DNA from: Escherichia phage PECP20
Strand: one strand, 5' to 3'
DNA: 64,000 bases
Sequence record: OQ873415.1
Below are positions 8,313 to 55,953 of the stretch, piece by piece. Position numbers and translations under genes: made by a program. The notes beneath the pieces were generated by a model that saw only the letters and a program-made list of their open reading frames with translations, had not been told where the DNA came from and searched no databases. Positions within the stretch are counted from its first letter, which is position 1, and the number at the start of each line of letters is the position of its first letter.

Positions 8313-8334
8313 AAGGAATCCCGAAGGATTCCTT
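8313..8334 (-). terminator. intrinsic terminator-like UUCG hairpin after soc
   Basis: Minus RNA AAGGAAUCC-UUCG-GGAUUCCUU followed by UUUUCGUUUC; 8 nt after soc stop. Confidence 0.5.
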
Positions 8335-14073: not shown

Positions 14074-14139
14074 AATGTTTTCCTCTTGGTTGGTGTAAGT
14101 TCATCATATCATGCCTAGAGGAAGATGTAAACCCCGAAA

Positions 14140-14155
14140 GGAGACCGAAGTCTCC
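14140..14155 (-). terminator. UUCG-tetraloop hairpin just after gene 41
   Basis: Minus RNA GGAGAC-UUCG-GUCUCC then UUUCGGGG; followed by GTTTAC promoter-like hexamer. Confidence 0.4.
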
Positions 14156-14161
14156 TTTTTA

Positions 14162-15613: not shown

Positions 15614-15955
15614 TTAAAAGAATTTAAATTTTTTCTTGGTCCGTTCATTAAAAGCTTGTTGTACTTGCATTGTAACACATTTTTCAACATGTGGTGCAAG
15701 TTCTGCTTTTCTGTCCTGGTCAAGAACTGCAAAGTCCATTACGATTTTACCATCAACCCAGTCTAGTTTTGTAATATAGACTATATGATGAGAACCATCT
15801 TCAAGTGTAATCAGAATCTCTTGAATGACATTTTCCATTGCTGAACGGATAATTTTAAGAGATTCATTAAACACTCGTTCTTTGCGAATGTCTTCCCCTT
15901 CCGAAGAAGGGGATTCATCAACGATTTCTAGATTTAAATCATCGAGATTATTCAT
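15614..15955 (-). CDS. hypothetical protein in the gene 40 position
   Basis: In-frame ATG (MNNLDD) at 15955 overlaps uvsX stop by 8 nt; track start 16075 would sit inside uvsX. Confidence 0.5.
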   Translation of the reverse strand: MNNLDDLNLEIVDESPSSEGEDIRKERVFNESLKIIRSAMENVIQEILITLEDGSHHIVYITKLDWVDGKIVMDFAVLDQDRKAELAPHVEKCVTMQVQQAFNERTKKKFKFF

Positions 15956-26548: not shown

Positions 26549-26580
26549 TTTGTTTGTTGATGAACTTATTATACTCCAAA

Positions 26581-26600
26581 TGGGACCGAAGTCCCATTGC
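26581..26600 (-). other. stable UUCG-tetraloop RNA hairpin between regA and gene 43
   Basis: Minus RNA AAUGGGAC-UUCG-GUCCCAUU directly after regA stop; followed by TATAAT hexamer. Confidence 0.5.
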
Positions 26601-29922: not shown

Positions 29923-29949
29923 GTTGTTCTCCATTTAATTTGATGTGGT

Positions 29950-29974
29950 CATTATAACCACATCGTGTTAAAGC
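29950..29974 (-). promoter_or_regulatory. candidate MotA-dependent middle promoter (CGCTTTA box, 12-nt spacer, TATAAT)
   Basis: TATAAT lies inside an 8-bp-arm palindrome gatgtggt...accacatc. Confidence 0.35.
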
Positions 29975-29976
29975 GT

Positions 29977-31665
29977 TTATGAAACAGTCATCACAGTAAA
30001 TCGTCCAACTTTGCTCATTTGAAGATGTTGTCCATAAGCTTGTGGGTCATGGTCTCTGTGACTAATTATAAACACGTTTGCATCGGTTAGAGAGTTAAGA
30101 ATTGTTGAAATAGCTTTAATACCTTCAGAATCAGTCGCGGAATCCATGACTTCGTCCATAATTAATGTATTGATTCTAACACCAGAGACTTTTTCAGCAA
30201 TATCTCGCCATGTAAACAACAATGCGATATCGATACGTGCCTTTTCACCTTGACTAAATGAAGCATAACTGAACTCTTCACGGCCACGTGATTTTATAGA
30301 TTCATTGAATTCTTCATCAATAGAAAACACGTAATCGGCTTCCATGATTTTAAGATAATGGTTAATCTGCTTGTTGAACAGAGGCACATATTTTTTAATG
30401 ATAGCACCTTTAATACCAGAATCTTTTAACATATCTGTGATAATACCACGATGGTATTTTTCAAGAACGATATCTGATTTTGTTTTAATGATTTTATCAA
30501 GTTCTTTTTGAAGCAAAGCTATCTCATCGGCATGGTCGATAAATTCTGCCGAGGCTTGCTCTATTGCAGCTTTAACTTTCTTAGCTTTATCAATAGTGGC
30601 AATCATTGCTTGTTTCTTGGTACGAATATCAGATGCAAGGTCCTGCTTAGTCTTAACATTAGCTCTATATTCGTCCACTAGGACACTCAGATTATCTCTG
30701 TGACAGGTAAGTTGCTCGAATGAGTGATTACATTCATGAAGCTTATCGGTAATCTTAGAGACAATAGGATCACCCTGGTGCAACTGTGATGCACAAGTAG
30801 GACATGTACCGCCATCATGATACATCTTAATAACTTTGTTATATGAGTCAATTTTAGATTTAATCAAGAATGCTTCTTGTCCTATCTTGTTGAATGCCTC
30901 AGTAGGGTCTTCGTCAAGAACGATATTAAGTAGACGCTCATTGGCTTCTTCAATTTCTGCTTTTAATGAACGAGCTTCTTTGGCTAGGTCGTCATACATA
31001 TTCTGTAGACGTGCTACATTATCGCCAGATAATTTCTTTTGGCGTTCGATATTCTCGTTATAAATCTTAATTTGTTGGATAACACCATCTTTCTTGGCAT
31101 CGAGAACTTGTCCCTGGGAATTAAGTTCTCGAACTTGAGACTTATTGATTTTATCCATTTCAGCGAGTGTTCCAACTTCTAATAAGTCTTCAACAAGCTT
31201 TCTGCGAGCAGGGGTGCTAAGAGCCATGAAAGGGGTATACCCTGCCGTCCCAAGCACAACGATCTGTTTAAAAGACGCGTATGACATTCCGATGCTACGT
31301 TCAAATTCTTCTTGGAAGTCACGACTGCTGGCAGATTCATCAAGACGAACACCGCCAACGGAGATTTCGAAAATATTGGGCTTTTGGCCACGTTTAATGA
31401 AGTATTTTTTATCATCAAATTCCATCCAAAGCTCAACTAAGAGCTCTTTCTTGTTCGTGCTATTAATGATTTGTCCTTTCTTAACATCACGAAATGGTTT
31501 ACCGAAAAGTCCGAAAGTAATGGCTTCTAACATCGTAGATTTACCACCGCCATTTTTACCAGTGATTAATGTCTTTTGGACTTTATCTAATTGGATATCA
31601 ATAGGATTCCCACCTACCGACATGATGTTTTGATAACGAACACGATTTAATTTAAATGATTTCAT
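29977..31665 (-). CDS. 46: recombination nuclease subunit gp46 (SbcC/Rad50-like ATPase)
   Basis: 562 aa; N-terminal Walker A GKNGGGKST; near-colinear with T4 gp46. Confidence 0.9.
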   Translation of the reverse strand: MKSFKLNRVRYQNIMSVGGNPIDIQLDKVQKTLITGKNGGGKSTMLEAITFGLFGKPFRDVKKGQIINSTNKKELLVELWMEFDDKKYFIKRGQKPNIFEISVGGVRLDESASSRDFQEEFERSIGMSYASFKQIVVLGTAGYTPFMALSTPARRKLVEDLLEVGTLAEMDKINKSQVRELNSQGQVLDAKKDGVIQQIKIYNENIERQKKLSGDNVARLQNMYDDLAKEARSLKAEIEEANERLLNIVLDEDPTEAFNKIGQEAFLIKSKIDSYNKVIKMYHDGGTCPTCASQLHQGDPIVSKITDKLHECNHSFEQLTCHRDNLSVLVDEYRANVKTKQDLASDIRTKKQAMIATIDKAKKVKAAIEQASAEFIDHADEIALLQKELDKIIKTKSDIVLEKYHRGIITDMLKDSGIKGAIIKKYVPLFNKQINHYLKIMEADYVFSIDEEFNESIKSRGREEFSYASFSQGEKARIDIALLFTWRDIAEKVSGVRINTLIMDEVMDSATDSEGIKAISTILNSLTDANVFIISHRDHDPQAYGQHLQMSKVGRFTVMTVS

Positions 31666-33212: not shown

Positions 33213-33232
33213 AGGAACTCCGAAGAGTTCCT
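33213..33232 (-). terminator. intrinsic terminator-like UUCG hairpin upstream of gene 47
   Basis: Minus RNA AGGAACUC-UUCG-GAGUUCCU followed by UUUUUUGCUUUAU. Confidence 0.5.
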
Positions 33233-33401
33233 ATCCACATAGTACACCGTACAGAGGCTCATTTGAACTTTTAAATCGAATGGGCTTGTACGTAATAGTT
33301 CCTTCGGCTTTAGCTTTATCATAAGACTCTTTAAAACGTCTCATTCTTTCTGCTTTGCCTTTACGGATTTTATCGAAATTTTCAGAAGTCGGGATGTTCG
33401 T
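33231..33401 (-). CDS. small hypothetical protein (about 57 aa)
   Basis: Hand-translated ORF (MTNIPTSENFDKIRKG...) ending at the hairpin; below track cutoff; coordinates approximate. Confidence 0.3.
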   Translation of the reverse strand, partial: TNIPTSENFDKIRKGKAERMRRFKESYDKAKAEGTITYKPIRFKSSNEPLYGVLCG

Positions 33402-36610: not shown

Positions 36611-36859
36611 TCAGAGGTTGATTGATACAATGCGTTTGATAAAATTCACTTCACTTACTGAAAGGTCTTTAAGACCGATTGATTCTAAACGCTGAGTAAG
36701 CGTCAACATTGGGATATAGTCCCATTGAGTTTTAGACATTTGATAAGTACGAACGCCATTAGCAATTTCAACATGCAAATCTGAAATGGTAACGAATACC
36801 GGTCGCTCATCATTAACTTTAAGGGTTAGAACAACTTTCTTTGAATCTAAACTAATCAT
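36611..36859 (-). CDS. hypothetical protein (82 aa)
   Basis: ORF. Confidence 0.5.
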   Translation of the reverse strand: MISLDSKKVVLTLKVNDERPVFVTISDLHVEIANGVRTYQMSKTQWDYIPMLTLTQRLESIGLKDLSVSEVNFIKRIVSINL

Positions 36860-50681: not shown

Positions 50682-50710
50682 CTATAACATAGTCCTACCA
50701 AGATGTAAAC
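50682..50710 (-). promoter_or_regulatory. early-type promoter with -10 inside a 9-bp-arm palindrome
   Basis: GTTTAC-N17-TTATAG; plus-strand ggtaggact-N10-agtcctacc. Confidence 0.35.
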
Positions 50711-54766: not shown

Positions 54767-54812
54767 CTCTAGTTGACAGGTCTATAGTAACACAACTAGA
54801 GGAGAAGTAAAC
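54767..54812 (-). promoter_or_regulatory. regB upstream region: early-type promoter plus SD-sequestering inverted repeat
   Basis: GTTTAC-N17-TACTAT; arms CCUCUAGUUG / CAACUAGAGG pair the GAGG of the SD; 5' arm lies in the promoter spacer. Confidence 0.45.
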
Positions 54813-55377: not shown

Positions 55378-55591
55378 AAGGAATTTCCTCATCGGTGGCA
55401 AGGTCATATTCGACCAATTGGATAGGCTCATTAATACCATATCCACGTACAGTGATATCAGTTGCCGGATAGTTTCCAGTAATATCACCCATTCTAAATG
55501 CTTCAATGAATGATTGCTCGCCTGAGCAACTAAACCAGGCGGCAAAACATTTTAAAACATCTTCAGACCCTTCTATAATCAATTTAGCCAT
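55367..55591 (-). CDS. hypothetical acidic protein (74 aa)
   Basis: ORF. Confidence 0.5.
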   Translation of the reverse strand: MAKLIIEGSEDVLKCFAAWFSCSGEQSFIEAFRMGDITGNYPATDITVRGYGINEPIQLVEYDLATDEEIPYVD

Positions 55592-55953
55592 TATAGACTC
55601 TCAGTAAAGGTACGAGCGATAACGTCACGCTGCTGTTCCGGAGTCAGAGAGTTAAAGCGAACTGCATAACCGGATACACGGATGGTCAGCTGCGGATATT
55701 TTTCCGGATGCTTAACTGCATCTTCCAGAGTTTCACGACGCAGAACATTAACGTTCAGGTGTTGACCACCTTCAATTTTAACTTTAGGTTGATGTTCAAT
55801 TTCAATTTCGCGGGCATGTAAACCGTAGAAAATTTCCGGGTCTACAATAGCGTCTTCTTTAAAAGTCTTAGAGACAATAATCCGGGCTTGAGTACCGTCT
55901 TCAAAATAAATAGTGCCTTTGTGTGTGCCTTCAAGAATTTGATATGCTTTCAT
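55591..55953 (-). CDS. autonomous glycyl radical cofactor (GrcA/YfiD-like)
   Basis: 120 aa; C-terminal ~60 aa ([60 protein letters not shown]) match E. coli GrcA as recalled, including the RVSGY glycyl radical loop. Confidence 0.9.

Follow-up and report, generated by a model that had tools for sequence, protein, structure and literature searches.

The window analysed here is the whole 64,000-nt stretch of DNA taken from Escherichia phage PECP20 (OQ873415.1). The region of interest is the junction of genes 46 and 45.2, where every local gene is carried by the minus strand. This region demonstrates 98.6% identity to RB69 and 99.9% identity to LH01, both members of the Mosigvirus genus, and window positions at the locus are converted to RB69 positions by adding 6830. 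The 45.2 product is 76% identical to T4 gp45.2, and 45.2 is also the name used in the RB69 annotation. On the minus strand the junction reads ...gtttcaTAAaCGCTTTAacacGATGTGGTTATAATgACCACATCaaattaaatGGAGaacaacATG, and the following features were recognized in and around it:

31665-29977, minus strand: gene 46, a Rad50/SbcC-like recombination nuclease subunit
29979-29977, minus strand: gene 46 stop codon TAA, overlapping the MotA box in its A/T-rich 5' part
29978-29969, minus strand: candidate MotA box aaaCGCTTTA, with its CGCTTTA core at 29975-29969
29972-29934, minus strand: extended quasi-palindrome TTTAA.CAC.[GATGTGGT]TATAATG[ACCACATC].AAA.TTAAA, with 19-nt arms that are 79% complementary
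29968-29957, minus strand: spacer acacgatgtggt = acacGATGTGGT, exactly 12 nt, whose last 8 nt (29964-29957) are the 5' arm of the palindrome
29964-29957, minus strand: 5' arm GATGTGGT, forming a perfect 8 bp with the 3' arm
29956-29951, minus strand: sigma-70 -10 hexamer TATAAT (6/6), in the loop of the palindrome
29949-29942, minus strand: 3' arm ACCACATC, at about -5 to +3
29943-29945, minus strand: predicted transcription start, about A29944, 7 nt past the last T of the -10 hexamer by analogy with T4 P45.2
29932-29929, minus strand: Shine-Dalgarno sequence GGAG of gene 45.2, recognized from sequence
29922, minus strand: true start codon ATG of gene 45.2, with the GGAG upstream
29922-29734, minus strand: gene 45.2, encoding a 62-aa product; it is the first gene that the candidate promoter would serve
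29721-29305, minus strand: rpbA, followed by gene 45 and gene 44

The preliminary description of this DNA had reported a minus-strand CGCTTTA, a 12-nt spacer and a TATAAT upstream of gene 45.2, the latter within 8-bp palindromic arms, and each of these elements is present in the sequence exactly as described. The coordinates given there, 29943-29974, place the element correctly and fall one base short at each end (C29942 and C29975). The TATAAT had also been called centred in the palindrome. It is indeed enclosed by arms that are perfect over 8 bp around the 7-nt loop TATAATG, but it lies half a base off the exact centre, and the repeat is longer than reported, running from 29972 to 29934.

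The consensus of the MotA box is (a/t)(a/t)(a/t)TGCTTtA, with single deviations tolerated by MotA, and in T4 the box is located 12 +/- 1 bp from TAtaaT (PMC2988021). The aaaCGCTTTA box agrees with nine of the ten consensus positions, the mismatch being a C for T ahead of an intact GCTT, and its 12-nt distance from the hexamer falls within the T4 range. The CGCTT variant is shared by four of the eight minus-strand candidate sites in the window. At the 17-nt position the sequence reads TAAACG, unlike the TTGACA of a sigma-70 -35 element, and a sigma-70 promoter scan does not list the site. Matches to GCTTTA-N11-13-TATAAT are 80-fold enriched in the window (5 found vs. 0.06 expected), and GCTT-N13-15-TATAAT was found 11 times against 0.96 expected. 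A second box of the aaaCGCTTTA type, cataaaCGCTTTA, with a 13-nt spacer, a TATAAT and no hairpin, was observed on the minus strand at window positions 45959-45935, and this site is probably another RB69-type middle promoter.

Several published predictions and annotations coincide with the site at the 46/45.2 junction. The RB69 middle-promoter prediction Pm:36813 has a score of 20 and is the fifth best of 32 (Nolan et al. 2006, PMC1524935, Additional file 4). Its coordinates, RB69 36773-36813, are the same 41 bp as window positions 29943-29983, and the two genomes are 100% identical over a 66-nt query spanning the intergenic region. The Pm:36813 entry consists of coordinates and an HMM score; the palindrome is unmentioned in it, and there is no terminator entry near those RB69 coordinates (PMC1524935). 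GenBank record OL960576, from a near-identical phage, has two annotations on this sequence, 'T4 middle promoter' and 'rho-independent terminator', and a predicted middle promoter is entered at the corresponding place in the record of the T4-like phage fPS-90. The motA and asiA genes are located outside the 64-kb window; both have been reported in RB69 (PMC1524935). A tblastn search with T4 MotA identified orthologs with about 50% identity in close Mosigviruses, among them OR525701, whose identity to the window at this locus is 99.3%. No transcript mapping at this site for PECP20 or RB69 was found in the literature reached, and no genome-wide study of T4 5' and 3' ends was found in the literature searched.

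The T4 counterpart of the site is P45.2, whose start at position 33257 is credited to Hsu and Karam 1990 (PMC2988021, Table 1). We identified T4 P45.2 as the positional ortholog of the PECP20 site by comparing the two junctions, the T4 sequences being as follows:

NC_000866, minus strand: T4 junction sequence taatttataagagattaTGCTTTAatttattagagTATAATctctatGGAGGaaaaacATG
T4 stretch upstream of the P45.2 MotA box, within a long hairpin: AGAGATTAT

The T4 start at 33257 is a G exactly 7 nt beyond the last T of the aligned -10 hexamer. Both sites share the 46/45.2 junction, the strand, the GCTTTAA core, the TATAAT, the downstream genes 45.2, rpbA and 45, and a strong hairpin. They differ in spacing (11 nt in T4 and 12 nt in PECP20), in the MotA box (TGCTTTA and CGCTTTA, respectively) and in the position of the start, which in T4 falls on the first G of the Shine-Dalgarno sequence, whereas in PECP20 it is predicted to leave a 22-nt leader. 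When the junctions of Mosigvirus, Tequatrovirus and Gaprivervirus were aligned from the gene 46 stop region to the start codon, the only invariant blocks were GCTTTAA and TATAAT, located 11-12 nt apart.

The site is therefore very probably a middle promoter of the P45.2 type, a reading that follows from the orthology to T4 P45.2, the invariant blocks, the RB69 prediction, the database annotations and the MotA orthologs. The suggestion of a middle promoter in the preliminary description is thus borne out by P45.2 orthology, the invariant box and -10 hexamer, Pm:36813 and the presence of MotA in relatives, this support being indirect. In T4, AsiA restructures sigma-70 region 4, and MotA binds to a box centred near -30. 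In PECP20, MotA would similarly occupy aaaCGCTTTA (29978-29969) and sigma-70 region 2 would contact TATAAT (29956-29951), with transcription starting near A29944 and continuing into 45.2, rpbA and gene 45, which encodes the sliding clamp.

The distribution of this promoter among T4-like phages is narrow. A 40-55-nt promoter-bearing spacer between genes 46 and 45.2 was found only in the Tequatro-, Mosig- and Gaprivervirus genera. In Karam-, Dhaka-, Gelderland-, Marfa-, Jiaoda-, Teguna- and Muldoonvirus, as well as in a Serratia phage, the two genes overlap (ATGA) or abut without a promoter. The promoter-carrying junction is the derived state. Searches with a gene 46 C-terminal pattern recovered 33 loci from IMG/VR and 13 loci from metagenome contigs, among which only the three already known spacer types were seen. 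In Erwinia phage FBB1 (MT920315, Roskildevirus), where the promoter is absent, a small hairpin (GCCTCataaGAGGC) directly precedes the 45.2 homologue and holds the gene 46 stop codon in its loop.

As RNA, the inner stem of the PECP20 palindrome is extended by a U.G and an A-U pair to 10 bp around a UAA loop, with five of the ten pairs being G-C; it starts 12 nt past the gene 46 stop codon and has an energy of -11.8 kcal/mol. The extended RNA stem comprises 15 bp, with a hairpin energy of -13.4 kcal/mol. The folding energy is -13.7 kcal/mol (z = -3.0) for a 60-nt promoter segment and -15.2 kcal/mol (z = -2.1) for a 76-nt segment, and the segment folded as DNA gives -7.9 kcal/mol (z = -4). Since the sense and antisense RNA folds of PECP20 are equally stable, the window holds no RNA-specific pointer. 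An 8-bp repeat is not rare in itself, because the window contains 22 perfect inverted repeats (stem of at least 8, loop of 3-10) vs. 10.7 +/- 3.5 after shuffling; inverted repeats enclosing TATAAT number 2 vs. 0.13 expected. The 45.2 site is the only one of the window's 11 GCTT-N13-15-TATAAT matches at which a hairpin overlaps the -10 hexamer. No second copy of the palindrome was found in the 64-kb window at up to three mismatches, and an Rfam search of the element returned only noise (E of at least 1). A different palindrome, tctataatCAATTTAGCCattataga, was observed at window positions 55572-55597, with a TATAAT in each arm, one per strand; it is located where ...gagtctataATGgctaaattgattatagaag hints at a gene start.

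In the minimum-energy folds of the 45.2 site, both the Shine-Dalgarno sequence (29932-29929) and the AUG (29922) lie outside the stem, with a weak outer pair touching only the first G of the former. The stem is followed by the tail AAAUUAAAU (also given as AAAUUAAAUGGAG), in which there is no U-run. Folding indicates that read-through RNA coming from gene 46, which holds both arms, forms the hairpin downstream of the gene 46 stop codon and ahead of the 45.2 Shine-Dalgarno sequence. RNA initiated at the promoter would be free of the hairpin, as the predicted start falls inside the 3' arm. Masking of the Shine-Dalgarno sequence as a translational control was rejected as a candidate role, given its position outside the stem.

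The hairpin of T4 P45.2 (NC_000866 33245-33300, minus strand) has 16-19 bp, with AGAGAUUAUGCUUUAA pairing with UUAGAGUAUAAUCUCU, and folds at -19 to -22 kcal/mol with z of about -6 (-19.3 kcal/mol, z = -6.2). Two G.U pairs give its sense RNA (-18.1 kcal/mol) twice the stability of its antisense RNA (-9.1 kcal/mol). Within the first 50 kb of the T4 genome, we scanned 29 middle promoters known from experiments for structure and obtained a mean z of -0.5 vs. -0.35 for random windows, with P45.2 as the single strong outlier; the other 28 have no comparable hairpin. A different way of stacking a terminator and a middle promoter was observed at T4 P43 (29933), P47 (36576), P39 (5349) and PmobB (38682), where the MotA box is located inside or just after a terminator hairpin of the GGGGC-UUCG-GCCCC type; in P43, the GCTT is the tetraloop region.

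The hairpins of T4 and PECP20 differ in their centres, which in T4 lies in the spacer, so that the half of the promoter with the MotA box pairs with the half bearing the -10 hexamer, and in PECP20 on the -10 hexamer itself; their arm sequences are unrelated. The extra sequence of T4 amounts to about 12 nt and lies 5' of the MotA box; that of Mosigvirus, about 11 nt, lies 3' of the -10 hexamer and includes ACCACATC. This stretch of about 11 nt holding the 3' arm is absent from T4 and Gaprivervirus, and the Mosigvirus ACCACATC is the complement of an older spacer sequence common to Gaprivervirus (ACA.GATGT). Judging from these alignments, the T4 and Mosigvirus hairpins are separate acquisitions via different lineage-specific insertions. 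In Gaprivervirus, the orthologous promoter has no significant hairpin (z of about 0), and the hairpins of the three promoter-bearing lineages cannot be aligned with one another. In Gaprivervirus, rpbA and gene 45 may be the genes served by the promoter instead of 45.2, because the predicted start would follow the Shine-Dalgarno-like AGAGG. In the Gaprivervirus TH57, the -10 region (GTTATAATAG) is able to pair with the 45.2 start region (CTATTATGGC), a pairing that is broken in sister genomes (CTGTTATG, CTGCTATG).

Within genera, the element is nearly invariant: none of the 140 Mosigvirus records has lost the palindrome, and all 444 Tequatrovirus records keep the T4-type region, at low divergence. 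Among the Mosigvirus records, 114 of 140 are 100% identical over 66 nt, whereas a 700-nt flank is 90-95% identical in most of them, a divergence traced to a mosaic patch inside gene 46. This conservation is uninformative on the hairpin, since variable sites are no more frequent in the neighbouring 45.2 coding sequence (5 of 189) than in the spacer (2 of 54), and it was dropped as evidence for the stem.

No change in the MotA box, the arms, the -10 hexamer or the Shine-Dalgarno sequence was found over the 66-nt region in the 140 Mosigvirus records, and two natural variants lengthen the stem. One is C29965->T, which adds 1 bp and shifts the fold from -14.7 to -17.0 kcal/mol. The other, in phage AV116 (OR352946.1), is a clustered AAA->GTG at 29941-29939 against a background of 98.3% identity. 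The new GTG is exactly complementary to the opposing CAC, which results in a perfect palindrome with 16-bp arms and brings the RNA fold from -14.7 to -26.3 kcal/mol (z = -5.9) and the DNA fold to -16.9 kcal/mol. The remaining Mosigvirus variants are C29965->A and an A->T just ahead of the ATG. Template-switch (quasi-palindrome) mutation was described by Ripley and first seen in T4 rIIB (PMC7202029). With three neighbouring changes against 98.3% identity elsewhere, the AV116 allele looks like such a templated mutation, and it supports formation of the hairpin in single-stranded DNA during replication.

Taken as a whole, the site is probably the Mosigvirus (RB69-type) ortholog of T4 P45.2, dependent on MotA and AsiA, with promoter DNA that is also a quasi-palindrome. 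The role of the hairpin itself is put forward more tentatively: the stem-loop may be a transcript-boundary element between the 47-46 message and the MotA-driven 45.2-rpbA-45 unit. It would attenuate or pause read-through transcription and/or shield the 3' end of the 47-46 message from exonucleases. The PeSL/PmSL cassettes of T4-like phages have been proposed to work on this principle. This role was judged the likeliest because only the read-through RNA is predicted to fold, the Shine-Dalgarno sequence is unmasked and there is no U-tract. Selection on the feature is suggested by the P45.2 orthologs of T4 and PECP20, both of which are structured with different sequence and geometry. The RegB consensus is GG*AGRAYARAA (PMC3014915), and GGAGAACAACA at the 45.2 Shine-Dalgarno sequence matches 10 of its 11 positions. 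Speculatively, a RegB cut at GGAG would leave the hairpin at most 10 nt from the 3' end thus created on the gene 46 message. It is possible, albeit doubtful in its entirety, that the P45.2 stem-loop is a selected marker of the 47-46 boundary, acquired independently in the T4-type and RB69-type phages, maybe acting together with a RegB cut and still evolving through template-switch extension, as in AV116.

Several other explanations were weighed against these readings. That the site is a chance consensus match, with 45.2-45 transcribed solely from upstream promoters and a promoter before gene 45, is extremely unlikely: the MotA box is off at one position, but five matches to the pattern occur where 0.06 are expected per window, the T4 ortholog of the site is a promoter mapped by experiment, and the promoter elements are invariant in three genera amid variable surroundings. 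A more serious, though still unlikely, explanation is that the promoter is real and the palindrome is a functionless by-product of template-switch mutagenesis copying one arm from the other. Such mutagenesis tends to lengthen imperfect inverted repeats, and AV116 bears the Ripley template-switch signature in its AAA->GTG change; the C29965->T variants extend the stem as well, the 3' arm complements an older spacer and arose as a lineage-specific insertion, Gaprivervirus functions without a hairpin, and the PECP20 folds have no strand asymmetry. Set against this are two independent acquisitions at one orthologous promoter while 28 T4 and 10 window sites have no comparable hairpin, the G.U pairs of the T4 hairpin, which work in the sense RNA only, and the retention of the palindrome in all 140 Mosigvirus and of the T4-type region in all 444 Tequatrovirus records, a retention tempered by low divergence.

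The annotation of OL960576, based on TransTermHP/WebGeSTer, implies instead a rho-independent terminator of the 47-46 unit that the promoter merely overlaps, and a 'terminator' feature label is likewise found under the T4-type site in MZ726795. The stable inner stem (-11.8 kcal/mol) 12 nt past the gene 46 stop codon would suit this function, and PeSL stem-loops cut downstream reporter expression like a strong terminator (PMC2839356). However, classical intrinsic termination is improbable because no U-tract follows the stem, the tails being AAAUUAAAUGGAG in PECP20 and AUGGAGGAAAAAC in T4. A terminator scan of the window does not call the hairpin, and the terminator-type hairpins of the window are perfect stems with UUCG loops, unlike that of P45.2. 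The intrinsic terminator was rejected on the absent U-tract and the negative scan. Five perfect 8-9-bp hairpins were observed at 8313-8334, 14137-14158, 15894-15913, 26579-26598 and 33213-33232, with the loop CGAA on the plus strand, i.e., UUCG on the minus (coding) strand; these look like T4-type terminators or stabilisers. It is also highly improbable that the palindrome acts at the DNA level as a switch, either as an operator bound by a dimeric protein of phage or host origin or as a cruciform exposing a single-stranded -10 hexamer. A perfect 8-N7-8 dyad centred on the -10 hexamer is a classic operator layout, its AT-rich centre would favour extrusion, and the DNA fold (-7.9 kcal/mol, z = -4) agrees with this; yet the 64 kb contain no second full or near-full copy, the T4 ortholog differs in arms and symmetry centre and thus shares no binding site, and the dyad is absent from Gaprivervirus. 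We know of no candidate binding protein for the dyad. The operator reading was set aside, there being no second copy of the dyad in the window.

The window contains 24 early-promoter-like sites, 23 of them on the minus strand. About 9 of the 24 are strongly structured, and in three of the 24 a perfect inverted repeat of at least 8 bp overlaps the -10 element. Two types of structured sites were distinguished:

50709-50681, 60809-60781 and 62373-62345, minus strand: early cassettes composed of GT(T/G)TACA, a 17-nt spacer and TGTTATAGT
54811-54784, 13697-13670 and 769-742, minus strand: early-promoter-like sites pairing with a Shine-Dalgarno sequence, with the -10 element in the loop and z from -3.5 to -4.3

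The early cassette TAGGACTATGTTATAGTAGTCCTA is present in three copies, at 50697, 60797 and 62361. In the three cassettes starting at 50709, 60809 and 62373, an extended -10 element lies in the loop of a palindrome with 9-12-bp arms (TAGGACTA...TAGTCCTA), followed by a Shine-Dalgarno sequence and an ATG. In the sites starting at 54811, 13697 and 769, the spacer (TTCTCC..GTTG) is complementary to a downstream CAAC..GGAG that holds the Shine-Dalgarno sequence of the next gene. Read-through RNA would mask this sequence at these three sites and promoter-initiated RNA would not.

PeSL elements are intergenic cassettes of T4-like phages that combine a promoter, a stem-loop 'overlapping the -10 box', a Shine-Dalgarno sequence and a start codon (Arbiol 2010, PMC2839356), and PmSL, their Mot-box version, was reported only in vibriophage nt-1 (Comeau 2014, PMC4122927). 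The proposed role of both is to halt upstream transcription while restarting it (PMC2839356, PMC4122927). The structured early cassettes of the window are PeSL-type elements. The observation in the preliminary description that a promoter inside a palindrome recurs at the early cassettes is therefore upheld, both by the counts given above and by the fit to PeSL/PmSL. The shared regulatory logic that it proposed was sustained in part: the likeness to the early cassettes is real, but the 10 other middle-promoter-like sites of the window and 28 of the 29 T4 promoters have no comparable hairpin, the P45.2 hairpin leaves the Shine-Dalgarno sequence unmasked, unlike several early cassettes, and the sequence of the palindrome is unique in the window.

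The promoter is already published and annotated, the palindrome is already annotated as a 'terminator', and the combination of a promoter with a stem-loop is a known class of design. The confirmation as such adds little, since there is a textbook ortholog in T4, a prediction for RB69 from 2006 and published promoter-stem-loop cassettes. What is new within the literature searched is modest, namely the structured P45.2 orthologs in two genera, the independence of their hairpins and the templated extension in AV116. If the convergence reflects selection, the locus offers a simple system of two species, to which AV116 contributes a natural 'super-stem' allele, and it could serve to examine how neighbouring transcription units are insulated and mRNA ends shaped in T4-like phages.

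Among known systems, PeSL and PmSL share with the P45.2 site an intergenic promoter, a stable stem-loop, a Shine-Dalgarno sequence and a start codon. PeSLs, however, are repeated as near-identical cassettes in hyperplastic regions, flank ORFans and mediate recombination, whereas the P45.2 element is a singleton set in the conserved 47-46-45.2-rpbA-45 cluster, although its promoter-bearing spacer is itself an indel. The early cassettes of the window differ from the P45.2 hairpin in the same way by being repeated and, in the type with spacer-Shine-Dalgarno complementarity, by masking that sequence. The AV116 allele resembles quasi-palindrome mutations (Ripley 1982; PMC7202029, PMC8604942) in being a clustered multinucleotide change that perfects an imperfect repeat; unlike the Ripley cases, it is a natural promoter polymorphism rather than a selected reversion, with a mechanism read from the pattern only. 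Finally, the promoter-in-hairpin switch of the T4 genes e, soc and 49 also relies on a read-through RNA that folds and a promoter-initiated RNA that lacks the 5' arm, but there the 3' arm sequesters the Shine-Dalgarno sequence or AUG, whereas the P45.2 hairpin leaves the Shine-Dalgarno sequence outside the stem.
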